Of a stretch of 64,000 bases of DNA, positions 31,490-42,558 are shown piece after piece (position 1 is the stretch's first letter; the number at the start of each line of letters is the position of its first letter). Where the stretch lies: the NCBI GenBank assembly GCA_964291625.2, contig OZ220089.1:4608001-4672000 (forward strand), in the 5' to 3' direction. The notes beneath the pieces are model-generated. The model made no database searches. It worked only from the letters and a program-made list of their open reading frames with translations, and was not told the origin of the DNA. The position numbers and the translations under genes were made by a program. The DNA is from Candidatus Latescibacterota bacterium. Its GTDB lineage: Bacteria > Latescibacterota > UBA2968 > UBA8231.

Positions 31490-32104
31490 ATGATCATGGC
31501 GCCGCCCGCCGGCGTCGACTCCCTCCTCATCGGTCTCGACGAGGAGACCGGCCAGGATCCGGTTCTCGACCTGGCGGCGCAGTTCGGAAACCCCCGCCCC
31601 GTGGAGCTCGAGCTCGGGATCGGCAAGGGGCGCTTTCTCCTCGACGCCGCCCTGCGCAACCCGGGGGTGAACTACATCGGTGTTGAGCAGGCGTCGAAGT
31701 ACCTTCGCCTCGCCCATGCCAGGGCCCTGCGCCGGGGCTGCGCCAACCTCCGCTTCGTCCACGGTGACGCCAGGGAGTTTGTCGAGTTCTTCCTCGCCGC
31801 CGCCTCGATCAGCGCCATTCACGTCTATTTCCCCGACCCGTGGCCGAAGAAACGGCATCACAAGCGGCGGCTGCTCGACGAGGCCTTTCTCGTGGAGGCG
31901 GAGAGAATCCTCATCCCCGGCGGGCGGCTCTGGATCGCAACCGACCACGATGGCTACTTCGAAGCGATCCTCGAGGCCCTCGACCCGTTCAACAGCCTCC
32001 TGCTTCCCGTGGAGGCGGTTTGGGAAGGCGCGACCACGAACTACGAGGACAAGTTCGTGGGCCAGGGCCGACCGATCCACCGCCGCGTCCTCGAGAAGCC
32101 CTGA
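31490..32104 (+). CDS. trmB: tRNA (guanine-N7)-methyltransferase
   Basis: ELGIGKG, FPDPWPKKRH.KRR, ATD, TNYE.K. Confidence 0.92.
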   Translation: MIMAPPAGVDSLLIGLDEETGQDPVLDLAAQFGNPRPVELELGIGKGRFLLDAALRNPGVNYIGVEQASKYLRLAHARALRRGCANLRFVHGDAREFVEFFLAAASISAIHVYFPDPWPKKRHHKRRLLDEAFLVEAERILIPGGRLWIATDHDGYFEAILEALDPFNSLLLPVEAVWEGATTNYEDKFVGQGRPIHRRVLEKP

Positions 32105-32249
32105 CCGCCGGCCAACCCTCTCCCGCGCGCCTCTGCCCCGGGCGTCCGAGGAGGGCGGGATAATCCCTCCCGTATCCTGGCTCAACTGAATAATTAACAG
32201 CAAGTTAGATTCTCCCACGGGGGACTGCCCCGCGGGGTCGGATTTGTTC

Positions 32250-32279
32250 TTGACATACCCTGCGTGGGGAAGGTATACT
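32250..32279 (+). promoter_or_regulatory. dcw (mra) promoter
   Basis: TTGACA-N18-TATACT in an AT-richer intergenic region. Confidence 0.7.
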
Positions 32280-32287
32280 ATGCCGGG

Positions 32288-32318
32288 GTGGAAAATGGTG
32301 TAATGTGGAGCTTAATGG
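32288..32318 (+). promoter_or_regulatory. Putative MraZ-binding repeats
   Basis: (A/G)TGG at 32295, 32305 and 32315 (10-bp period) plus GTGG at 32288, resembling GTGG-N6 MraZ boxes. Confidence 0.6.
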
Positions 32319-32350
32319 TTCTTCCGGTTCAATGACCTTCGAGGAGCCCC

Positions 32351-32794
32351 GTGAGCGCTCAATTCCTTGGAGAGTACGAGGTCCCCGTCGACGACAAGGG
32401 CCGGATCTTCCTGCCCGCCGAGTTGCGGCGGAATCTCGAGCCGGAGGCGGACGACACCTTCGTGGTCATTCGGGGCCTGGACGGGTGCCTCACCGGGCAT
32501 CCACGCAACCTGTGGGCCCAGATCGCGGAGAAGATGCTCCAGCTGCCATGGAAGGAGCAGCGGGTCAGACTGTATACGCGGGCCCTCCTGTCCCAGGCGA
32601 CCGAGGTGAGACTCGACCGCCAGGGGCGTGCGTCTCTTCCGAAGAAGCTCCTGGACCGGGCCGGGATCGGCGACCGTCTGGTCGTCATCGGGGCCCTGGA
32701 ACATCTCGAGTTCTGGGAGCCGGAGGCTTGGCAGGGATACCTGTCCCAGGCCGAGCCGACCTTGGAGGAAGTGGCCGAGACGCTGGATCTGTGA
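32351..32794 (+). CDS. mraZ: Transcriptional regulator MraZ
   Basis: D.KGR and D.QGR repeats, first gene of the dcw cluster. Confidence 0.95.
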   Translation: MSAQFLGEYEVPVDDKGRIFLPAELRRNLEPEADDTFVVIRGLDGCLTGHPRNLWAQIAEKMLQLPWKEQRVRLYTRALLSQATEVRLDRQGRASLPKKLLDRAGIGDRLVVIGALEHLEFWEPEAWQGYLSQAEPTLEEVAETLDL

Positions 32795-33760
32795 GTGGCC
32801 TACCACGTGCCGGTCATGGTCGAGGAGGTCGTCACCGGGTTGGCAACGGACCCCTCAGGGGTCTATGTGGACGCAACGGCCGGGGGGGGAGGGCACGCGG
32901 AGGCCCTTCTTCGGGCTCTCGGAGAGAGGGGGCACCTGCTGGTATGCGATCGGGATGCAGCGGCTGTGAACGAGGCGGGCCGCCGGCTCGATCCGTACCG
33001 CGGACGGGTGACCTTTCTCCAGTGCGCGTTTTCCTCCCTCGGCCGGTCGGTGGCCCCACTCCTGGATCGCCTGGAGCGATCCGGAGTGGACGGGGTGCTC
33101 TTCGACCTGGGGGTCAGCTCCCACCAGATCGACGAGCCTGGGCGCGGATTCAGCTATCACCAGGACGGTCCCCTGGACATGCGCATGGACCGAGGAGCCG
33201 GAGAGCCCGCGGACCAACTGCTGGCGCGGGTCCGCGAGGCCGACCTGGTGGAGTTGATCAGAAGAAATGGTGAGGAACGGCAGGCGAGGCGCATCGCGCG
33301 TTCCATCTGCCGTTCCAGGGACGAAGGCCGCATGCAGACGACGGCGCAACTGGCCCGGGCGATCGAATCGACGCGCCCGGAACGACCGACCAAGACCCTC
33401 GCACGGGTGTTCCAGGCCCTGCGAATCGCCGTCAACGACGAGCTGACCGAGCTCGAGAAGGGGCTCCGGGCGGCCGTCGATCTGCTCGCACCGGGCGGCC
33501 GGCTCGCCGTCATCGCTTACCACTCCCTGGAGGACCGGATCGTCAAGCACAGGATGGGCAGCCTGATAAGGGGCTGTGTCTGCCCGCCGGATCTGCCCGC
33601 CTGTGCGTGCGGACGCAGGCCGACGTTCCTGCGCATCGGCCCGCCCCGCCGGCCCGGCGCCGAGGAGCAGGCCGCCAATTCCCGGTCCCGGAGCGCCACC
33701 CTGCGCCTCTTCGAGAAGGTCCCTCGTGTCTCCGGAGGCACCGGAGGAGCCGTCCGGTGA
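32795..33760 (+). CDS. rsmH: 16S rRNA m4C1402 methyltransferase
   Basis: HVPVM, DAT.GGGGH, DLGVSS.Q, PLDMRM, FQALRIAVN.EL, HSLEDR. Confidence 0.96.
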   Translation: MAYHVPVMVEEVVTGLATDPSGVYVDATAGGGGHAEALLRALGERGHLLVCDRDAAAVNEAGRRLDPYRGRVTFLQCAFSSLGRSVAPLLDRLERSGVDGVLFDLGVSSHQIDEPGRGFSYHQDGPLDMRMDRGAGEPADQLLARVREADLVELIRRNGEERQARRIARSICRSRDEGRMQTTAQLARAIESTRPERPTKTLARVFQALRIAVNDELTELEKGLRAAVDLLAPGGRLAVIAYHSLEDRIVKHRMGSLIRGCVCPPDLPACACGRRPTFLRIGPPRRPGAEEQAANSRSRSATLRLFEKVPRVSGGTGGAVR

Positions 33761-34047
33761 GGGCCTGGTTTCAGGGCGACTGGGTCCGGGCGCTGACCGT
33801 GCTCGCCATGGCGGCGGCGACGACGGCCTACGTGTGGATCAAGGTGCAGATCTCGGAACTGGCGCGCGCCTCCGAGGCGGCAGGGACCAGGGCCCAGGAA
33901 CTGGTGGTGGAGAGCTCCCGCCTCGAGGCCTCCCTCGACCGGGCGAGCCGGTCGAGCCTGCTGCGACAGCGGGCCGAAGGCGAGCTCGGAATGACCTATC
34001 CGGACCCGGGAGCCACGGTCGACCTCCTGGTCAGGGCATCGCGATGA
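33757..34047 (+). CDS. ftsL: Cell division protein FtsL-like
   Basis: 96 aa, one TM helix plus coiled coil, ends A..ELGM.YP; lies between rsmH and ftsI with 4-nt overlaps. Confidence 0.75.
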   Translation: MRAWFQGDWVRALTVLAMAAATTAYVWIKVQISELARASEAAGTRAQELVVESSRLEASLDRASRSSLLRQRAEGELGMTYPDPGATVDLLVRASR

Positions 34048-36098
34048 CGAGCCGCGGCTCCCACGACGACGAACGCCGCCCCTTTGCCCTCGGCCGCCAC
34101 CGCCTGCGGTGGGTCCTGCTCGCCGGAGGTCTGATCTGGTCTCTCATCGGCTTGAGGCTTGTGCAGTTGCAGGCGATCGACCACGGCACCTACCAGCTGC
34201 GCGCCCGCAACCAGCATCAGCGGCAGATCCCGCTGAGCGCACGGCGCGGGGCCATCCTCGATCGCCGGGGCCGCGAGCTGGCATTCGACGTCACCGCCGT
34301 CTCCTTCTACTGCCGGCCCGCACAGGTCCGCGATCCCGACGCGGTGATGGCCCACTTCATGCGGTTTGGCCGACGCTCCGTCGACGCGGTGTCCCAGCTG
34401 ATCAGCGGCGGGCACCCCTTCGTCTATCTCCTCCGTCAGGTCGACGGTGAGCGGCTCCACCAGGTCCGCCAGAAGACCTTCGAAGGGGTGTACGAGCAAC
34501 TGGAGGTCCGCCGTCACTATCCCTACGGCCGCTTGGCCGGACAGCTCCTGGGGTTCACCGACATCGAGAACCGGGGCAAGGAGGGGACGGAGCTGGCCTT
34601 AGACGAGATCCTGGCCGAACGGGCCGGGTCCGCCCGATCCTACGTCGACGGCCTGGGGAACGTTCTTCCCGAGCGTTCGCAGCCGACCGCCGCCCCTCGG
34701 CACGGCGCCAGCGTCCATCTGACCATCGACGCCGCCATCCAGGAAATCCTGGAGGAAGAGCTGGCCCGCACCGTGGCTGAGACCCGGGCCGAGGGAGCCC
34801 TCGGCATCATCGTCGATCCACGGTCCGGGGAGATCCTGGCCATGGCCGGCATTCCCCTCTTCGATCCGAACGATCCGGGCGGAGTCCCCGCCAACCACCG
34901 CCGGAACCGTCTGGTCACCGATCCCTTCGAGCCAGGGTCGATCATCAAGCCCATCACCATGGCGGCCGTCCTCGATGCGGACCCGAGGGTCCTCGAGAGG
35001 AAGGTCTACTGCGAGCAGGGCGCCTACGCCCTGTCCATGGGGGACGTCATCCGGGACGTCAAGCCCCACGGCTGGCTGACACCGGCCGACGTGGTCGCCC
35101 AGTCGAGCAACATCGGGGTGATCAAGCTCGCCCAGGGGCTGGATCGGTCGAGCTACTACCAGTCCCTGCGCAGCTTCGGCTTCGGGACCCGGACCGGGAT
35201 CGGCCTTCCGGCGGAGAGCGCCGGGCTGTTGCGGCACGCCCGCGACTGGTCCAACCGCTCCCTGGAGACGATCTCCATCGGCCAGGAGATCAGCGTCACC
35301 GCGGTGCAGATGGTGCAGGCCTTCGGCGCCATCGCCAACGGGGGCATGCTGATGGCGCCGAAGGTGATCCAGGAGGTCCGGGATCCCGCGGGACAGATCC
35401 TGCGGCGGGAGGAACCGAAGCCCGTGCGCCGGGTCCTCTCCTCCAGAACCGCCTCGGTCCTCAAGGGAATGTTGCGGCGGGTGGTCAGCGACGGAACGGG
35501 GCGCAACGCGGCCATCGAAGGGGTCCAGGTGGCGGGCAAGACGGGGACCGCGCAACGCGCCCTTCCGGGGGGCGGCGGCTACGCCCAGGGCGAGTACATC
35601 GCTTCCTTCATCGGCTTCCTTCCGGCTACCGGGCAACCGCGCTACCTCTGCCTGGTCTCCGTGGAGAACCCGCGGCTCGGGAAGTGGGGGGGCGTCGTGG
35701 CGGCGCCCGCCTTCCGGCGCACCATGGAACGGATCCTCGTCCTCGACGGATCGCTGGCACCCGGCGGCATCCGGCCGGGCGCCCTGGCCGACGCCGCGAC
35801 CGAGGTCCCAGGCGAGGTCATGCCCGATTTCAGGGGGCTGGACGTGCCCCGGGTCAGGGTCCAGGCCCGCCGCCGGGATCTCAACCTCCGCTTCGAGGGC
35901 TCCGGCCCGATCGTGGTCGGCCAGGAGCCGGCGCCCAGGTCGCGCCGCACGGAGGCGGACATCCTGTGCCGTCTCGGCAGCCGGGCCGACCTGCTGGCCC
36001 TGGGGCTGCCCGAGGCGCCAATGCGCCAAGCCGTGCTGGTGCGCAAGCTGCAGGGCCCGCAGCTGGTGGCCCTCGCGCCGGGGGAGGGCGGGAGGTGA
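34044..36098 (+). CDS. ftsI: Peptidoglycan transpeptidase FtsI/PBP3 with PASTA-like C-terminus
   Basis: RG.I.DR, EPGSIIKP (SxxK), SSN, KTGT. Confidence 0.93.
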   Translation: MTSRGSHDDERRPFALGRHRLRWVLLAGGLIWSLIGLRLVQLQAIDHGTYQLRARNQHQRQIPLSARRGAILDRRGRELAFDVTAVSFYCRPAQVRDPDAVMAHFMRFGRRSVDAVSQLISGGHPFVYLLRQVDGERLHQVRQKTFEGVYEQLEVRRHYPYGRLAGQLLGFTDIENRGKEGTELALDEILAERAGSARSYVDGLGNVLPERSQPTAAPRHGASVHLTIDAAIQEILEEELARTVAETRAEGALGIIVDPRSGEILAMAGIPLFDPNDPGGVPANHRRNRLVTDPFEPGSIIKPITMAAVLDADPRVLERKVYCEQGAYALSMGDVIRDVKPHGWLTPADVVAQSSNIGVIKLAQGLDRSSYYQSLRSFGFGTRTGIGLPAESAGLLRHARDWSNRSLETISIGQEISVTAVQMVQAFGAIANGGMLMAPKVIQEVRDPAGQILRREEPKPVRRVLSSRTASVLKGMLRRVVSDGTGRNAAIEGVQVAGKTGTAQRALPGGGGYAQGEYIASFIGFLPATGQPRYLCLVSVENPRLGKWGGVVAAPAFRRTMERILVLDGSLAPGGIRPGALADAATEVPGEVMPDFRGLDVPRVRVQARRRDLNLRFEGSGPIVVGQEPAPRSRRTEADILCRLGSRADLLALGLPEAPMRQAVLVRKLQGPQLVALAPGEGGR

Positions 36099-37546
36099 AG
36101 CTTCGCGACCTGATCGGCGCGATCCGGCCCGTCCACATCGGCGGATCCCTCGACGTGGAGATCGAATCGGTCGTCTCCGATTCGCGCCGGGCCGGCCCCG
36201 GAGCCCTGTTCGTGGCCGTTCGCGGCGGACAGGAGATCGACCGCCATTGTTTCGTCGATGATGCCCTCGCCCGCGGGGCTTCGGCGGTAGTGGTCGAGGA
36301 GGACGATGAGAGTCTGCCGTCGGCACGTATCCGCGTCGACGACTGCCGCCAGGCCCTGGCAGCCCTCGCGGCCCGGCTGCACGGCTGTCCGGCCCGATCC
36401 TTCCGGTGGCGCGTCGGGGTTACCGGAACCAACGGCAAGTCGACGACTGCCCTGCTTGTGCGCCACGTCCTGGAGGCCGCAGGGGCGCGCAGCGCCTACA
36501 TCGGGACCCTGGGATTCTCCTGCGGCGAAGGCATGGAGAGCCTCGACAACACCACGCCCGAGGCCGACCGGCTGCAGGCCCTGCTCGCCAGGGCCCGTGA
36601 CGCCGGATGCGACGCTCTGGTCATGGAGGTCTCCTCCCACGGTCTGGCTCTCCGCCGCGTCGACGGGATCGACTACTCGGTGGCCGTGTTTACCAATCTC
36701 ACGCGTGACCACCTCGACTTCCACGGCACCGAGGAGGACTACCTGGCGGCCAAGGCGACTCTCTTCCGGGGTCTCGGCCAGGGAGGGGCGGCGGTGGTGA
36801 ACGCCGATGATCCCCACGCTCCGGAGGTGGCGGCAAGCACTTCGGCCCGGGTGCTCACCTACGGCGAGAGGGGAGAGGACGTACGTCTCGCCAGCTTCGA
36901 CACCCGAGCGGGCTCCACCACCCTTCTGAAGCTGGAGACGCCGGCCGGAGAGTGGTCGGTGGAGACCAGCCTGGCGGGCCGGTTCAACCGCTGCAACGTG
37001 ATGGCCGCCGTCTGCACCGGCGTCGCCCTGGGGATCGATGCCGACGCCGTGCGGTCGGGAATCGCCGCCGTGTCCCAAGTGCCGGGCCGCTTCGAACGCC
37101 TGGACGAGGGCCAGCCCTTCGAAGTCATCGTCGACTACGCTCACACGCCCGCCGGTCTCGACACGGTGCTGCGCACCGCCAGGGAGTTGACGCGGGGCCG
37201 GCTTCTTTGCCTTTTTGGCTGTGGTGGCGACCGCGACAAGGGCAAGCGGCCTCTCATGGGGCGCGTCGCCGAGGATCTGGCCGATCTCGTCTTCCTCACC
37301 TCCGACAACCCGCGGGGGGAGCCGCCCGAGGAGATCATCGATCAGATCGTCGCCGGCATGCGCGAAGCCGACTCCGCCGTGGTTTGTCCGGATCGGCGCG
37401 CCGCCATCGATGCAGCCCTGCAAGAGGCCGGCGATGGGGACGTGGTGGTGGTGGCGGGCAAGGGGGACGAACCGTACCAGATCCTGGCCGACGGACCCAC
37501 CGACTTCGACGACCGCCAGGTCGTGCGCCAGGTGCTTCGCAAGTAA
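36095..37546 (+). CDS. murE: UDP-MurNAc-tripeptide synthetase (mDAP type)
   Basis: TGTNGKST, NTTP, MEVSSH, DHLDFH, DYAHTP, DNPR. Confidence 0.96.
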   Translation: MKLRDLIGAIRPVHIGGSLDVEIESVVSDSRRAGPGALFVAVRGGQEIDRHCFVDDALARGASAVVVEEDDESLPSARIRVDDCRQALAALAARLHGCPARSFRWRVGVTGTNGKSTTALLVRHVLEAAGARSAYIGTLGFSCGEGMESLDNTTPEADRLQALLARARDAGCDALVMEVSSHGLALRRVDGIDYSVAVFTNLTRDHLDFHGTEEDYLAAKATLFRGLGQGGAAVVNADDPHAPEVAASTSARVLTYGERGEDVRLASFDTRAGSTTLLKLETPAGEWSVETSLAGRFNRCNVMAAVCTGVALGIDADAVRSGIAAVSQVPGRFERLDEGQPFEVIVDYAHTPAGLDTVLRTARELTRGRLLCLFGCGGDRDKGKRPLMGRVAEDLADLVFLTSDNPRGEPPEEIIDQIVAGMREADSAVVCPDRRAAIDAALQEAGDGDVVVVAGKGDEPYQILADGPTDFDDRQVVRQVLRK

Positions 37547-38931
37547 TGTGGCGCGACATCCACATCGAGGAGGTCCGCACCTGGACGAGGGCGGAGTGGA
37601 GAGGAGGGGAGGATCTCAGGGGGCGGCTGGCGACGGGTGTCTCCACCGACACTCGAACCCTCGAGCCCGGCGAGATCTTCGTGGCCCTGGCGGGCGAGCG
37701 CTTCGATGGCCACGACCACGTCTCCGAGGCCTTCGAGAGGGGCGCGAGTTCGGCCATCGTCGATCGCCGGCGGGTGGATGGTCTCCGGTTGACGGGGCCG
37801 GCCAGGGCGGCTTGTCTGATGGTCGTGGATTCTCCGGTGCGGGCCCTGGGCCGGATGGCCCGCCACTACCGCCGGCGATTCGACCTGCCCGTGGTCGCCA
37901 TCACCGGCTCGTCCGGGAAAACGACGGTCAAGGAGATGGTCGCCGCGGTCCTCGGACGGCGGTTCCGGGTCCTGAAGACACCGGAGAACGAGAACAGCGA
38001 GATCGGTGTGCCCCGGGCCCTGCTGAGACTGTCGGCGGATCACTCCGCCGCGGTCCTCGAGCTCGCGGCGAGGCGGGTGGGGGACATCGAGTATCTGTGC
38101 CGGGTCGTGCAGCCTACGGTCGGGGTTCTGCTGAACATCGGCGCGGCGCACGCCGGTATATTTGGATCTGTAGAGAGAGTGGCCAAGGCCAAAGGGGAGC
38201 TCCTGGACGAAATCGTGGATGAGTCTTACGTGGCTCTCGTAAACGCCGACGACTGTGTCATTGCCAGGGAGGCTAAGAGGACAAAGGGGAGACTCCTTGG
38301 CTTCGGTTGGCGGCGTGAGAGCCATTTCAGTGGGGAGGGACTCTTCCTCGACCAGGAGGGCTGCGGCCACTTCTCTCTACAGAAAACCTCCTTCGATCTC
38401 CGCATCCCGGGGCGGCACAATGCGCACAACGCACTGGCGGCCATCGCATGTGCGCGCATGTGCGGCGTGCCCCTGGGGGAAGCCAGCGCCGCCCTGGGTG
38501 GGTTCCAGCCACTGCACATGCGCTCGGCCATTCTGCAGAGACGGGGAGTGCGGGTGATCGACGACTGTTACAACGCCAACCCCGGCTCGGTCCGGGCCGC
38601 CCTGGATCTGACGGCGGAGATCCCCGTCAAAGGCCGCCGGGTGGCCGTCCTCGGGGACATGATGGAGCTCGGCGAGGCGAGCGAATCCCTTCACGAGGGA
38701 ATCGGCCGCCACGCCGCAGACCGAGTCGATGTTCTGCTGGGCACCGGTTCCCAGAGCGTGTACACGGTGCGTGCGGCCCGGGAGGCGGGGCTGGACCCGC
38801 GCCGGGCTCTTCACTTCGAGGACCGGGGCGAGCTGATCCACCATCTGGAGCAGGAGGTTTCCGAAGGCGATCTGGTTCTCGTCAAGGGCTCTCGCGGCAT
38901 GGCCCTCGAATCGGTCGTCGAGGCTTTGTAG
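37546..38931 (+). CDS. murF: UDP-MurNAc-tripeptide:D-Ala-D-Ala ligase
   Basis: DTR, FDGH, ITGSSGKTTVK, DCYNANP.S, LGDMMELG, KGSRG. Confidence 0.94.
   Translation: MWRDIHIEEVRTWTRAEWRGGEDLRGRLATGVSTDTRTLEPGEIFVALAGERFDGHDHVSEAFERGASSAIVDRRRVDGLRLTGPARAACLMVVDSPVRALGRMARHYRRRFDLPVVAITGSSGKTTVKEMVAAVLGRRFRVLKTPENENSEIGVPRALLRLSADHSAAVLELAARRVGDIEYLCRVVQPTVGVLLNIGAAHAGIFGSVERVAKAKGELLDEIVDESYVALVNADDCVIAREAKRTKGRLLGFGWRRESHFSGEGLFLDQEGCGHFSLQKTSFDLRIPGRHNAHNALAAIACARMCGVPLGEASAALGGFQPLHMRSAILQRRGVRVIDDCYNANPGSVRAALDLTAEIPVKGRRVAVLGDMMELGEASESLHEGIGRHAADRVDVLLGTGSQSVYTVRAAREAGLDPRRALHFEDRGELIHHLEQEVSEGDLVLVKGSRGMALESVVEAL
38167..38383 (+). ncRNA. Candidate structured RNA (long rod) embedded in the murF coding sequence
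   Basis: Nested complementary segments found by eye; outermost is 18 Watson-Crick bp (38167-38184 with 38365-38383); no family recognised. Confidence 0.6.
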
Positions 38932-39081
38932 ATTCCGTCTCCCGGGCCCTGCCGCCGTCCCCTCGGCGGCGCCGTTTGACAGGCAGTCCCCGCGCCATCC
39001 CCTGGCGCGGCCCGAGGTTGGTATCACCCTCCCCCGGCGCGTGGTTTCGCGCCCCCCTTTGTCCTGACGCTGGCTCGAGTC

Positions 39082-40284
39082 ATGCCGGACGCCTCGCAAC
39101 GTGCAGCTCGCCACGTTCTCCTGATCGCCACGATGCTCGTCGGCATCGGCGTCGTCATGGTGTACAGCTCCAGCTCGGCCCTGGCGGGAGCGAAGTTCGA
39201 GAACAGCGGATTCTTCCTTCAGCGCCAGCTGATGAGGGCCGCCTTCGGCCTGATCATGATGCTCCTCCTCTCGCGGGTGCCCCTCTCTCTGTGGCGTCTG
39301 CTGGCGCGGCCCCTGCTCCTGGTGGGCATCCTGCTCCTCGTCCTGGTGCTCATCCTGGGCGAGGGCCGGGGGGCGCAGCGCTGGCTTCCCTTCGGGCTGC
39401 CCTCCCTCGCCACCCTGTCCTTCCAGCCTTCCGAGTTCGTCAAGCTCGTCCTCGTCCTCTACCTGGCAGACGTGCTGGCACGGAAGCAAAGCGACATGGG
39501 CGACTGGAGACTGGGCCTGGCCCCCCGGCTCGCGGTGATCTCTGTCGTTCAGGTCCTGATCGTCCTGCAGCCCGACCTCGGCACGGCCCTGGCCATCAGC
39601 GCCATCTCCATGGTCATCCTCTGGCTCGGCGGGGCGGGCACCTCCCACCTGGCCCTGGTGGCCTCAGGGGCCGGCTTGGTGGCGGGCTGGTCGGTGCTGT
39701 CCTCGCCCTACCAGCTCGAGCGCGTGCGGACCTTCCTCGTGGGAGCGGATCCGCAGGGGGCCGGCTTCCAGGTGGACCAGGCGCTGCTGGCTCTCGGCAG
39801 CGGGGGCTGGCTCGGCGTCGGCCTCGGCAACAGCATGCAGAAGCACTACCTGCCAGAGCCACATACCGACTTCGTCTTCGCCTTCGTCGGCGAGGAACTC
39901 GGCTTGCTCGGCGCCCTGAGCATCATCTGCCTCTTCGTGGCCCTGTCCGTCCACGGCTACCGGATCGCCACGAGGGCCGCCACCTTCCACGGATTCCTCG
40001 TGGCCTCCGGGATCACGGTGATGGTGGGGACCTACGCTCTGCTCAACGTCGCCGTGGCAACCGGCCTCATGCCGACCACGGGACTGCCCCTGCCCTTCGT
40101 CAGCTACGGCGGATCCTCGCTGCTGCTGAACCTGAGCGGCATCGGCCTTCTCGCCGCCGTGGCCCGCGAGAAGGTACCGGCCGCGTCGACGGCCTGGCGC
40201 CGGCGCGGAGAGCTGTCGCGGCCCCATCCACCAGGCACCGATGACTACTGGGTCCCACGCCCGGCACCGGCGGGCAGCCAATGA
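39082..40284 (+). CDS. ftsW: SEDS peptidoglycan glycosyltransferase FtsW
   Basis: MVYSSS, GAQRW, FQPSEF.K, QPDLGT, LPEPHTDF, GLPLPFVSYGGSS. Confidence 0.95.
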   Translation: MPDASQRAARHVLLIATMLVGIGVVMVYSSSSALAGAKFENSGFFLQRQLMRAAFGLIMMLLLSRVPLSLWRLLARPLLLVGILLLVLVLILGEGRGAQRWLPFGLPSLATLSFQPSEFVKLVLVLYLADVLARKQSDMGDWRLGLAPRLAVISVVQVLIVLQPDLGTALAISAISMVILWLGGAGTSHLALVASGAGLVAGWSVLSSPYQLERVRTFLVGADPQGAGFQVDQALLALGSGGWLGVGLGNSMQKHYLPEPHTDFVFAFVGEELGLLGALSIICLFVALSVHGYRIATRAATFHGFLVASGITVMVGTYALLNVAVATGLMPTTGLPLPFVSYGGSSLLLNLSGIGLLAAVAREKVPAASTAWRRRGELSRPHPPGTDDYWVPRPAPAGSQ

Positions 40285-41687
40285 GAATGCCTCTTCGGGA
40301 CCGCGGAGCCCGTGCCGGAGAACCTCTCGGGGCGGGGGTGAAGCGAGTGCACATGGTCGGCATAGGCGGCGCCGGCATGGAGGCCCTGGCACGGCTCCTG
40401 GTCGATCTCGGCTACCGGGTGAGCGGTTCCGACGCGGCCGCTGGCCCCGGGGTCACCGACCTCCAGCAGTCGGGTGTTCCCGTGCGCGTCGGCCACCACG
40501 CATCGCAGGTCGAGGGCGCCGATCTCCTCGTGTACTCCTCGGCCGTGGACGAGGAGAACTGCGAGCGCCGGGCCGCGGCGCGTCTGGGGATCGAGCAGTG
40601 GTCGAGGGCCCGCGCCCTGGGCGCCGTGAGCCGCACCTGCTATACGGTGGCCGTGGCCGGCACTCACGGCAAGACGACGACGGCTTCCCTGATTGTCGGT
40701 GCCCTGCGCTGCGCGGGGCACGAGCCCCGGGTCGCCATCGGCGGCTGGATGGGGGGGCGTCCGCAACCGACGGCCCGGTCCGGAGACCTGCTGGTGGTCG
40801 AGGCGGACGAATATCGCCGCGCCTTCCACGAACTCGAGCCCTGGATCTCGGTGGTCACCAACATCGAGATGGAGCACGTCGACTGCTTTGACGGCCGCGA
40901 CGACCTCGTCGAGGCCTTCGGCGTCTTCCTCTCCCGGTGCCGGCGCGGGGGCGGCGTCGCCGTCAATGGCGACGACGAGCTTTGCCGGGCGGCGGCTGTG
41001 CGGTCGCGGGCGGACGCGTCCCTGACCTTCGGTTTCGGACCCTCCTGCCAGGTGCGCGCCGAAGCCCTGGCGCCGACGGGCACGGGATCGGCCTTCGCCG
41101 TCCACCTGGACGGAGAGCGTCGGCCGGTCGACCTGGGCGTCCCGGGGAGGCATAATGTCAGCAACGCCCTGGCGGCCATCGCCGCGACCCGCCTGATGGG
41201 CCTGGCCTGGGAGCCGGTCTCCTCGGCCCTGCGCCGCTTCACCGGGGTGGATCGGCGCTACCAGTCCCGGGGGGAGGTGGAGGGGGTGGCCATCGTCGAC
41301 GACTACGCGCACCATCCGACGGAGGTCTCGGCCACGGTGGCGACGGCAGCGGCGACCGGGAGAAGGGTGACCGCCGTTTTTCAGCCCCACACCTACTCCC
41401 GTACGCGCCACTTCCACGAGGCGTTTGCCGAGTCCCTGCTCAACGCCCACAGGGTGTGCGTGACCTCCGTCTACGCGGCCCGGGAAAGCCCGGATCTGGG
41501 GGACGAGGGGGATGTCATCGTCGACGATCTGCGGCGCCTGGGACACCATCGGGCGCGCTTCGTGGCCGAGGCCGACCTCGCCCTGTCCCGCTCCCTGGCG
41601 GAGTGCGCCGCCGGTGACCTTCTCCTGGTGATGGGGGCCGGGGACATCGGCGACCACCTCGGGGACCTTCTGGAGGGTACGGCCTGA
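40281..41687 (+). CDS. murC: UDP-MurNAc:L-alanine ligase
   Basis: GIGGAGM, VSGSD, AGTHGKTTT, EADE, DDYAHHPTE, FQPH, MGAGDI; start uncertain. Confidence 0.95.
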   Translation: MRMPLRDRGARAGEPLGAGVKRVHMVGIGGAGMEALARLLVDLGYRVSGSDAAAGPGVTDLQQSGVPVRVGHHASQVEGADLLVYSSAVDEENCERRAAARLGIEQWSRARALGAVSRTCYTVAVAGTHGKTTTASLIVGALRCAGHEPRVAIGGWMGGRPQPTARSGDLLVVEADEYRRAFHELEPWISVVTNIEMEHVDCFDGRDDLVEAFGVFLSRCRRGGGVAVNGDDELCRAAAVRSRADASLTFGFGPSCQVRAEALAPTGTGSAFAVHLDGERRPVDLGVPGRHNVSNALAAIAATRLMGLAWEPVSSALRRFTGVDRRYQSRGEVEGVAIVDDYAHHPTEVSATVATAAATGRRVTAVFQPHTYSRTRHFHEAFAESLLNAHRVCVTSVYAARESPDLGDEGDVIVDDLRRLGHHRARFVAEADLALSRSLAECAAGDLLLVMGAGDIGDHLGDLLEGTA

Positions 41688-41688
41688 G

Positions 41689-42558
41689 ATGACGCCGCGG
41701 AAGAAGGCCGGGCAGGCCGGAGTGCCCATGGCCTCCCCGGCCGGGGCTCCGGGACACCGGTGGCGGCGGCCTGTGCTGGCGGCGGGCCTGGCGGCGGTGA
41801 CGGCTCTGACTCTCGGCATCCAGGGAGCGCAGTCGACGCCGATGGAGTCTCCCTTCCGCGTCGACATCCTCGAGGTGCGCGGCCTCCGCCTGCTGCACGG
41901 GGACATGATTCTCGCTGCCAGCGGCATCGCGGCGGGGGCGGAACTCTTCGACATCGACCCGGACCGGCTGGCCGAGCGTCTCAGGCGCCTGGTGTGGGTG
42001 CGAGAGGCGCGGGTGGTGCGCAGGCCTCCGGACCGCCTGATCGTCCATCTCGAGGAACGCCGCCGGACCGCCTGGGTCGATTGGCGCGGCGTCCAGTACG
42101 GCCTCGACCCGGAAGGGGTCCTGCTGCCGCCCGAGCGACTGCCCGCGGAGAGCATCGCGGATCTCGATCTGCCGGTGTTGCGGGTACGCTCCCTGGTCGC
42201 CGGGGGGGACACGGTGAGGCCGGGGAAGGTAGTGACCGACAGCACCGCCCTCCGATTGCTGGGGTGGCTGGGTGAGGCCTCGGAGCAGGCTCCCGACCTG
42301 GCCTCGGAGATCTCCCAGCTCACCGACTTCGATGGTCTCAGCCTGGGGATGCGGCTGGTGGCCGACGGGCTCGAGGTCCGGGTCCCTCCAGACCGAGTGG
42401 AGGAGCGGATGGCCGTTCTGCGGGAAGTCCTCAAGCGCGTCTACCGGGAGGTTCCAAACCCCTCCTACGTCGATCTGAGGTTTGCGGGCCAGGCCGTCGT
42501 CGGCTCGCACAAAGAGGCAAGGAACCCAATGGGCGGTGCCCACCACAGGAAGAGATGA
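41689..42558 (+). CDS. ftsQ: Cell division protein FtsQ/DivIB
   Basis: TM plus POTRA (WV..A.V.R..PD.L...L.ER) and C-terminal YVDLRF. Confidence 0.88.
   Translation: MTPRKKAGQAGVPMASPAGAPGHRWRRPVLAAGLAAVTALTLGIQGAQSTPMESPFRVDILEVRGLRLLHGDMILAASGIAAGAELFDIDPDRLAERLRRLVWVREARVVRRPPDRLIVHLEERRRTAWVDWRGVQYGLDPEGVLLPPERLPAESIADLDLPVLRVRSLVAGGDTVRPGKVVTDSTALRLLGWLGEASEQAPDLASEISQLTDFDGLSLGMRLVADGLEVRVPPDRVEERMAVLREVLKRVYREVPNPSYVDLRFAGQAVVGSHKEARNPMGGAHHRKR

Follow-up and report, generated by a model that had tools for sequence, protein, structure and literature searches.

The window, a stretch of 64,000 nucleotides, carries on its plus strand (37546..38931) a murF coding sequence of 461 amino acids, as judged from the open reading frame and its start, Pfam and alignment to PDB entries. 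The Pfam Mur_ligase N, M and C domains are all present, and the protein aligns with the solved MurF 4cvk_A at an E value of 1.5e-81. Codons 208-280 of this gene also hold a rod-shaped RNA element of 217 nt (38167..38383, plus strand), whose extent was determined by minimum free energy (MFE) folding, shuffles, a covariance model and the limits of synonymous constraint. The rod lies wholly within the murF reading frame, on the sense strand, and the alignment to 4cvk_A runs through its segment with indels of only 1-4 amino acids. Across 38150-38400 the GC content falls from about 0.70 to 0.54-0.59, and at third codon positions it is 0.68 in the rod versus 0.84 outside. The first-pass annotation of this DNA had described the segment as rich in rare codons, which holds for TCT (3 of 73 codons in the rod versus 2 of 388 outside), GTA (2 versus 0) and CTA (1 versus 0), but not for ATA and TTT, which are located just upstream of the rod.

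All nested helices proposed in that annotation, together with the purine-rich loop of 21 nt (38272-92) that they enclose, were recovered in place. RNAfold returned the same rod, with about 80 nested pairs and a free energy of -113.2 kcal/mol versus -81.8 +/- 4.8 for 200 dinucleotide shuffles, none of which folded as well (z -6.49). The strongly negative z-score that had been expected against codon-preserving shuffles was also obtained: permutation of synonymous codons within the segment gave -82.6 +/- 4.8 versus -112.0 for the native sequence (z -6.18; 0/300), and resampling of codons from the rest of murF gave -91.8 +/- 5.3 versus the same native value (z -3.81; 0/300). The minus strand of the rod reached -95.2, 17 kcal/mol worse than the plus strand. 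Among 774 isolated low-GC dips in the genome the rod ranked first with 77 nested pairs, followed by dips with 70, 68, 67 and 66. A genome scan for exact 8-mer inverted repeats returned 12 GC-rich regions and missed the murF rod itself; it was therefore considered insensitive and discarded.

The rod is closed by a stem between TCTGTAGAGAGAGTGGCC (38167..38184) and GGCCACTTCTCTCTACAGA (38365..38383), in which a single base of the 3' arm is bulged. In the covariation analysis this helix 1 comprises 21 pairs, of which 7 show changes on both sides, and 95.6% of its cells are paired; in the RNAfold structure the closing helices stack some 22 pairs. A bulge of 9 nt follows at 38191..38199, AAAGGGGAG (motif 1), which is unpaired in both the MFE and the consensus structure. 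Its codons supply K-G-E in the AKGE motif of MurF; within it AAAGGGGA is shared without change by 43 of 43 representatives, and the final G is nearly invariant. Next to the bulge, CTCCTGG (38200..38206) pairs with CCAGGAG (38352-38358); 99.1% of the cells of this helix 2 are paired, and three of its seven pairs have changed on both sides (e.g., CG in 63 and UA in 19). The 5' arm of the middle helices (38217..38255; helices 4-8 of the covariation analysis) consists of GGA.GAGTC, GTGGCTCTCG, CGCCG and CGACTG and is partnered by 38304-38347. Here the lineages differ, GGCTCTCG/TGAGAGCC being replaced by GACTATCT/AGATATGTC. The apical stem GCCAGGGAG/CTCCTTGGC (38263..38301; helix 9) closes the 21-nt loop, the 3' part of which (38283-38292) reads AAAGGGGAG(A) and constitutes motif 2, with AAGGGGAG invariant in 43/43 representatives. 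Motif 3, GTGGGGAGGGACTC (38330..38343), has its GGGAG bulged on the 3' arm, while in the RNAfold structure its GGACTC pairs with GAGTCT; GTGGGGAGGG is again the same in all 43 representatives, and the variant GGGGAGAGGCTC occurs in genus g14. The rod thus exposes three unpaired tracts, in the 5' bulge, the apical loop and the 3' bulge, with the shared core (A)AAGGGGAG. As the 3' end of the 16S rRNA reads ...CACCTCCTTTCT, these GGGGAG tracts look like Shine-Dalgarno sequences of this organism.

A covariance model built for the rod (R1), which scores 227.7 bits at the window locus, identified the element in 109 of the 114 genomes sampled from the same class and in the window's own genome. Each genome carries one full-length rod, the exceptions being one with two fragments at contig ends (G126) and one with an extra weak match (G123); in the window's own genome both blastn and the covariance model found a single copy. 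All 150 pattern-selected loci, 80/80 from genomes and 70/70 from metagenomes, lie within murF on the sense strand. In other classes of the phylum the MurF segment has equal length and lacks the rod, with family f9, from another class, keeping the apical hairpin alone. Synonymous-codon identity amounts to 0.66-0.88 in the rod versus 0.29-0.55 outside, and its profile rises at about 38167 and falls at about 38385, i.e., at the ends of the rod. Where the amino acid is the same, the fraction of identical codons inside versus outside was 0.93 versus 0.40 for L014, 0.89 versus 0.35 for L020 and 0.67 versus 0.38 for L030. This constraint on the nucleotides makes MurF residues 208-280 more conserved within the class than the remainder of the enzyme. 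Distances inside and outside the element are correlated (Spearman 0.86), indicating vertical descent.

The pairing itself is under selection. In the consensus structure 94.9% of cells are paired, and changes on both sides were observed at 23 of 55 pairs, versus 10.5 +/- 1.4 in shuffles (0/500 reached 23) and 6-11 in slid controls; homologues folded singly yielded the same rod from different middle sequences. Paired positions contain 647 G-U cells versus 53 A-C cells, demonstrating that the folded molecule is the sense RNA, and the G-U wobbles thus favor the plus strand, as had been noted from the window sequence. The earlier proposal that synonymous sites were shaped for an RNA-level function of this strand is supported by four independent tests, namely the synonymous constraint confined to the rod, the compensatory changes, the G-U asymmetry and, in one run, a very large local excess in the depth of RNA contigs.

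The RNA evidence consists of assembled contigs of metatranscriptome runs, which cannot show starts, ends, strand or level. In run X2, contigs within the rod had a k-mer depth of at least 20,871, and up to 75,720 when summed at 38263, values that refer to contigs only and to one run of one study. Neighboring depths in this run were 21.2 for a contig over 37875-38208 and 6-8 downstream. One deep contig of 108 nt (38179..38286, plus strand, depth 20,871) matches the window with 0 differences and spans the region between the bulge of the closing stem and the apical loop. A second deep species corresponds to a g14-like variant of the rod. Loose ends at 38179 and 38286/7, which at both contig borders look like what we take to be sequencing adapter, point to recurrent fragment ends, although contigs cannot show the ends of RNAs. 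In run X1 a contig of 1679 nt passes straight across 37300-38460, and the local excess is only 1.6-3.4-fold. Run X3 displayed an excess of about 7-fold, which derives partly from other species matching the conserved stretch. Across runs X3-X16, 10-18% of murF words were present; as the relatives in X3 and X4 match the conserved stretch only, word shares of this small size do not indicate a discrete RNA. Some murF stretches were without contig cover in X2 and X4, to which no weight was given as evidence.

A separate promoter is not apparent for the rod. The TATATT box that had been pointed out just before the first paired base is present at 38157-62; however, it is not conserved in relatives, has no usably spaced -35 element and did not yield a promoter in the consensus scan. 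Within 37900-38600, searches for sigma-70 promoters and intrinsic terminators returned none of either. Inspection by eye reveals a promoter of the sigma-70 kind upstream of the dcw cluster. As no conserved promoter or terminator flanks the rod, it would be copied together with the rest of the dcw/murF transcript. Sequences complementary to the loop motifs showed no enrichment in the genome (6 observed versus 11 expected, 18 versus 32, 4 versus 5, and 16 versus 59), and no target is therefore proposed. A blastn search of the rod against phages and plasmids found no match.

The comparison to known RNA families was similarly negative. A search of 37500-39000 with Rfam 15 at E <= 10 returned four matches with E values of 1.3-5, all far below gathering scores; three lie outside the rod, among them a chance-level match to PrrB_RsmZ, and IRES_mnt reaches only the last 6 bases of the rod. 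The rod thus has no match to 6S, SRP or any other Rfam model in this region, and the 6S-like size that had been suggested does not extend to the architecture, since the MFE and consensus structures contain only one-sided bulges and small internal loops and lack a large two-sided central bubble. The 6S model (RF00013) gave no match in the window's own genome (E <= 1), in any of the 114 sampled genomes of the rod-bearing class or in any of 29 genomes from f5-f10, f13 and f14, families without the rod. Across 151 genomes of the phylum its only matches, all sub-threshold, were in f11 and f12 (6 of 7 genomes). As the positive control recovered 6S in only 4-5 of 14 known genomes, this absence means little, and since 6S is undetected with and without the rod, the two distributions are not complementary. 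An SRP RNA was rejected, as the canonical small SRP RNA sits elsewhere in the genome. CsrB/RsmZ-type sponges are abundant RNAs with repeated GGA-containing purine motifs in the loops of many small hairpins. The purine loop motifs of the rod are alike in containing GGA, but there are three on one rod; a search of the genome (95% complete) with PF02599 detected no CsrA, and a CsrA/RsmA-sequestering RNA was rejected on this ground.

The closest parallel is FtsO, an ORF-internal sRNA encoded within ftsI of E. coli. Its wobble identity amounts to 91% versus 67%, its reads exceed those of the mRNA by orders of magnitude, processing generates its 5' end, and it sponges RybB with Hfq via an unstructured seed (PMC7815308). 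As far as that report describes it, FtsO resembles the murF rod in occupying the sense strand of an essential coding sequence of the dcw cluster, in the extra conservation of wobble positions and in probably being processed rather than having its own promoter; an RNA signal well beyond that of the host mRNA may be a further common feature, suggested for the rod by the X2 contigs. Unlike FtsO, to which it has no sequence relation, the rod resides in another gene and another phylum and is a 217-nt structure of about 80 pairs with covariation and class-wide conservation. The rod is best read as a new stable RNA internal to an ORF, as FtsO is, that probably arises by processing of the dcw transcript. 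The full reading, in which the sequence has a dual use, specifying MurF residues 208-280 and a 217-nt sense-RNA rod that is under class-wide selection and acts as an ORF-internal stable RNA, has in our estimate an even chance of being correct. The element would be transcribed within the dcw/murF message and be set free by, or simply survive, the cutting and trimming of that message; its long helix would shield it from nucleases and so let it build up to levels well beyond those of the mRNA. Its working surface may then be formed by the three invariant purine tracts, which are single-stranded and could bind a protein or base-pair with CUCC(U)UU-type sequences such as those of the 16S rRNA 3' tail or of other RNAs. 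In a more specific and rather unlikely version, the rod would be an abundant housekeeping regulator arising from coding sequence, in which three Shine-Dalgarno mimics titrate 30S subunits (or another global factor), thereby tying dcw output to translation capacity. In that case f9, with its apical hairpin alone, would mark a step on the way to the rod or a step in its decay.

Ribosomes translating murF must open the rod, so that it could also act in cis, with the accumulated fragment as a by-product. A cis-acting mRNA element, i.e., an RNase III-type cleavage site, an exonuclease barrier or a ribosome pause site that sets the stability or stoichiometry of the dcw message, is the strongest competitor, though we consider it doubtful. 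The rod would then form on poorly translated murF/dcw transcripts, and the abundant fragment would be a nuclease-resistant remnant. Consistent with this, no promoter or terminator is conserved, the constraint stops exactly at the helix ends, about 22 stacked pairs close the element, the deep contig starts opposite the bulge of the closing stem (38179) and stops in the apical loop, and the rod never occurs outside murF. RNase III sites within E. coli coding regions have been reported (PMC5371410). Hairpins in coding regions that are cleaved by RNase III are short and show little conservation, and they are not known to build up. The rod shares with them a long imperfect double strand within an mRNA that could direct cleavage and mRNA control, and differs in its invariant loops and class-wide occurrence. 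However, a pure cleavage or barrier signal needs shape and not the letter-for-letter invariance of three unpaired GGGGAG tracts; for two of these tracts, MurF residues conserved in other classes offer no explanation. In addition, an excess of three orders of magnitude with two co-occurring species exceeds most decay remnants, and the abundance in X2 favors a stable RNA species.

For a stable RNA, a divergent 6S-type molecule hidden in murF and binding the RNA polymerase holoenzyme would share the size near 200 nt, the hairpin of 5' and 3' arms and the high abundance, here seen in one metatranscriptome, and Rfam 6S is without a match at E <= 1 in the own genome and without one in the 114 sampled class genomes. 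Yet RF00013 does not match the region even at E <= 10 in the 1.5-kb search, the candidate bubble region pairs almost fully in most lineages, so that an open central bubble is lacking, the rod is inside a coding sequence, and 6S likewise goes undetected in the 29 genomes without it; we regard this origin as improbable. The local GC dip, the atypical codons and the palindromic shape could instead reflect a cause at the level of DNA or population, such as a cruciform or protein-binding DNA site, an insertion of the RPE/MITE type or recent recombinational spread. Rickettsia palindromic elements and in-frame MITE-like palindromes are multi-copy insertions that add residues and are read through as protein. 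The rod is likewise a palindromic sequence read through as protein but is present once in the genome, has not lengthened MurF compared with other classes or PDB entries and is codon-for-codon homologous to ordinary MurF, and a mobile element of this type was rejected on the grounds of copy number and unchanged protein length. As G-U exceeds A-C 12 to 1, which fits a one-strand RNA and not DNA, phages and plasmids show no match and divergence inside the element tracks that outside, this explanation is largely refuted and has only a very small chance of being right. Protein-level constraint or an overlapping reading frame, with the hairpin incidental, is refuted: although motif 1 encodes the universal AKGE motif, the residues at motifs 2 and 3 differ in MurF of other classes, the constraint falls on synonymous sites, covariation follows the pairing, and stops occur in all five other frames in at least 80 of 83 sequences.

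To our knowledge, searches for structured bacterial RNAs cover almost only intergenic DNA. The discussion section of a genome-language-model preprint states that structured RNAs embedded in coding sequences cannot be modelled (10.64898/2026.09.22.753630). Literature searches on noncoding RNAs in Latescibacteria and on 6S in Latescibacterota returned no papers, and none of the papers listed for murF RNA structure and small RNAs, or for structured RNAs and synonymous constraint within bacterial coding sequence, described the rod. A structured RNA that covaries, is conserved throughout the class and may be very abundant is located in one of the best-known essential genes, and as an ORF-internal stable RNA it would extend the single well-studied precedent, FtsO, to a larger, highly structured molecule in an uncultured phylum, again within the dcw cluster. 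MurF residues 208-280 represent a case of an RNA shaping a protein. The rod also provides a unique nucleotide marker for the class and calls for caution in codon-based selection tests and in codon optimization of murF.

The murF gene of the window (37546-38931) encodes a protein of 461 residues with three Mur ligase domains (Pfam), which aligns over its full length with the solved MurF 4cvk_A (E 1.5e-81). It lies in a cluster of dcw type, together with a PBP transpeptidase gene (33576-36098), a Mur ligase gene in the murE position (35684-37546), an FtsW/RodA-family gene (39082-40284), a second Mur ligase gene (40281-41687) and ftsQ (41689-42558). The usual followers of murF, mraY, murD and murG, were not among the ORFs scanned between murF and ftsQ (38931-42558); the Pfam scan covered five ORFs in all. 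Upstream of the first dcw genes, TTGACA and TATACT with an 18-nt spacer (32250-32279) are likely, as judged from their sequence, to form the cluster promoter; the low-GC gap around them (32103-32470) has no unusual structure (fold z -0.29).

Within murF, a stretch of 217 nt (38167-38383, + strand) is predicted to form a single rod, which occupies codons 208-280 (204-280 for the whole extent of the finding). Each helix listed by the first-pass annotation was found in place, and RNAfold returned the same rod, made up of a singly bulged 18-bp closing stem, a GGCC/GGCU helix, a bulge of 9 nt (AAAGGGGAG), a CTCCTGG/CCAGGAG helix, several middle helices and an apical stem that closes a 21-nt purine-rich loop. 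Its MFE of -113.2 kcal/mol compares with -81.8 +/- 4.8 in dinucleotide shuffles (z -6.49; none of 200 as good), and the reverse strand folds worse by 17 kcal/mol. The fold also stood out when the protein was held fixed, both with synonymous codons permuted (z -6.18; 0/300) and with codons resampled from the rest of murF (z -3.81; 0/300). GC drops from about 0.70 to 0.54-0.59 over the segment, and GC3 is 0.68 inside versus 0.84 outside. No other of the 774 isolated low-GC dips of the 5.9-Mb genome has an unbranched hairpin as long as the rod (77 nested pairs, 228 nt); the hairpins that follow have 70, 68, 67 and 66 pairs. These runners-up (G000, C2:83682-83899, C1:1510373-1510578, C1:2988145-2988330 and C1:3953717-3953907; MFE -75 to -85) each lie in a long open frame and are far weaker.

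To follow the segment in relatives, 41 genomes (the window's own and 40 others) were searched; murF was present in 39, and the 30 best loci entered a protein-guided codon alignment. MurF identity falls to 49-68% overall, while the nucleotides of the rod, third positions included, are near constant. Where the amino acid is shared, the fraction of identical codons inside versus outside the rod was 0.93 versus 0.40 for a locus of the same genus (L014), 0.89 versus 0.35 within the family (L020) and 0.67 versus 0.38 within the class (L030). A sliding synonymous profile of 16 representatives ran at 0.29-0.55 along the gene, rose to 0.66-0.88 over about 38167-38377 and was back at 0.46 at 38389; its steps fall at the rod limits, so the constraint coincides with the helix. 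Both analyses thus bear out the initial proposal that synonymous sites here were shaped for an RNA-level function. The constraint is absent upstream and downstream of the rod, where a promoter and a terminator would be positioned. Distances inside and outside the element are correlated (Spearman 0.86, 435 pairs), as expected for vertical descent with purifying selection and at odds with a recently spread segment.

The pairing itself is supported by compensatory changes, for which the first-pass annotation had proposed a test. RNAalifold on 30 sequences gave 45 pairs, ten of which vary on both sides, and homologues folded singly formed the same rod, also where the middle sequence differs: the middle helices GGCTCTCG/TGAGAGCC and CGCCGACGACTG/CGGTTGGCGGCG of the window's family are replaced in families f2 and f4 of the class by GACTATCT/AGATATGTC and CTCGATGACC/GGTATCGAG, respectively. 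An alignment of 87 sequences (83 distinct) was made with a covariance model of the rod (R1; 217 positions, 55 pairs, 43 representatives). Standard pairs occupy 94.9% of cells in this alignment, with a covariation score of 0.237 versus 0.178, and 23 of the 55 pairs vary on both sides, compared with 10.5 +/- 1.4 in column shuffles (0/500 reach 23) and 6-11 with partners slid by 1-3 columns; as the alignment was fitted to a model whose structure came from the window's own fold, these figures lean towards that structure. Neither the codon alignment nor the folds of single sequences has this bias, and both agree with the structure. The helices vary little because of dual coding, as a pair can be restored only if both of the codons involved tolerate a change. 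G-U and U-G cells (647) far outnumber A-C and C-A cells (53), so the + strand preference of the wobbles noted earlier is upheld and the folded molecule is RNA with the sense of murF rather than DNA or an antisense transcript. An overlapping gene was excluded: the murF frame is the sole open one in all 83 sequences, and each of the five others is stopped in at least 80.

An exact two-block alignment pattern matched 92 stretches in 185,579 species genomes, and all 80 loci retrieved from these lay in murF on the sense strand (two that run off the locus edge were excluded from later alignments). Most of the records bear the title Candidatus Latescibacterota; the rest are Gemmatimonadota, Gemmatimonadaceae, one Handelsmanbacteria and one Planctomycetota. 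Both Latescibacterota and Gemmatimonadaceae occur as titles for loci with a MurF 94-98% identical to that of the window, so the labels are inconsistent and do not demonstrate a span over several phyla. One element-bearing MAG (among L039-L118) is titled Gemmatimonas phototrophica. In the window's phylum the strict pattern occurred in 95 of 168 genomes, all of the window's class (f1 45/75, f2 25/31, f3 3/3, f4 21/22 and the window's own genome), and in none of 36 phylum genomes outside it. R1, applied to a sample of 151 genomes, matched 61/63, 27/30, 2/2 and 19/19 in f1 to f4; three of the five genomes missed (G014, G016, G099) also gave no murF match. In genera that the strict pattern missed, the element takes variant forms: GGGGAGAGGCTC in g14, and a loop shorter by 6 nt in g30. 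Searched with the exact pattern, metagenome contigs added 70 stretches, 70/70 in murF; phage and plasmid collections gave no match.

Five genomes of other classes (f5, f6, f7, f10, f14) have neither the rod nor nucleotide conservation in this MurF segment, which is 240 nt long, the same length, in all but f6 (237 nt); the fold z, computed for f7 alone, was -1.7. By this sequence comparison, the element arose within codons that were already present rather than by insertion. Both f9 genomes (L145:1478-1696, -; L146:1536-1754, +) match R1 at 80-81 bits and keep the apical hairpin CAAGGAG...AAAGGGGAGACUCCUUG, including motif 2 (AAAGGGGAGACUCCUUG) letter for letter; their rod is weak (MFE -61 and -64, z -1.9 and -2.9) and motif 3, the purine tract of the 3' bulge, is lost. 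This form could be a stage in the element's origin or a decayed form. Weak R1 matches in f11 and f12 are coding-driven, without a rod. In G126, contigs C8 and C115 (1-70 each) both start inside the element (model positions 78-147), where the palindrome seems to break the assembly. A second R1 match in G123 (C3:955180-955303; L149:1181-1304, -; 25 bits), outside murF by tblastn, is probably due to chance.

Part of murF occurs in fifteen RNA-labelled runs, four of which (X1-X4) were compared with 37300-39200 at 80% likeness; being assembled contigs, they are blind to ends, strand and level, and give depth as one mean per contig. In the metatranscriptome X2, a 108-nt contig identical to the window (38179-38286) has a depth of 20,871, and summed depth is 75,720 at 38263 and 18,642 at 38306. 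A 405-nt contig (38260-38661) has a mean depth of 2,562, compared with 21.2 for a contig at 37875-38208 and 6-8 for downstream contigs. Loose ends at 38268 and 38308 belong to a g14-type variant; a second species' element is thus also very deep, which argues against a single amplified molecule. Those at 38179 and 38286/7 resemble sequencing adapter, in which case many short inserts would share these ends, one opposite the closing-stem bulge and one in the apical loop. X3 (depth 57-63 versus about 8) is raised in part by relatives matching the conserved stretch alone, X1 has 22-45 versus 13 with a 1,679-nt contig running through the rod, and the polyA run X4 covers 38065-38397 only, at depth 3-7. 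Support for abundance of the rod RNA accordingly comes from a single run in one study.

ORF-internal sRNAs are a known, very small class. The closest precedent is FtsO, described as an sRNA within E. coli ftsI that sponges RybB, with a wobble identity of 91% versus 67%, reads orders of magnitude over the mRNA and a 5' end generated by processing (PMC7815308). From this analogy and the anatomy of the element, there is about an even chance that the rod is an ORF-internal stable RNA. In this reading it is made as part of the dcw message, would escape nucleases owing to its helix, and would act through three invariant unpaired (A)AAGGGGAG tracts in the 5' bulge, apical loop and 3' bulge. These could pair with the 16S 3' tail (CACCTCCTTTCT) over seven positions, one a wobble; a search for targets or partners found none, complements of the loop motifs not being enriched in the genome. 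Neither a sigma-70-like promoter nor an intrinsic terminator was found in 37900-38600, and the TATATT box suspected initially is not conserved in relatives. A purely cis role, as nuclease entry site, decay barrier or pause site with the fragment as its remnant, appears rather unlikely. Read as an ORF-internal sRNA, the rod is a new family, unusual in size, structure and conservation depth and from an uncultured phylum; our literature search (murF RNA structure, Latescibacterota ncRNA/6S, coding-embedded RNA) returned no published description.

Other identities were rejected. Rfam gave four chance-level matches, none centred on the rod, the genome's SRP RNA lies elsewhere, a mobile palindrome does not agree with a single-copy element that adds no length, and CsrA, needed for a conventional CsrA sponge, was not found in the genome. 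The 6S-like size noted in the first-pass annotation does not extend to a recognisable 6S RNA, as there is no model match, no two-sided central bubble and no distribution complementary to the phylum's 6S matches; a 6S-like role is very improbable. Within the phylum, Rfam 6S matches were confined to f11 and f12, where full-length matches in six of seven genomes (L139-L144; 22.7-43.2 bits, cut-off 46.4) probably represent true, divergent 6S RNAs.
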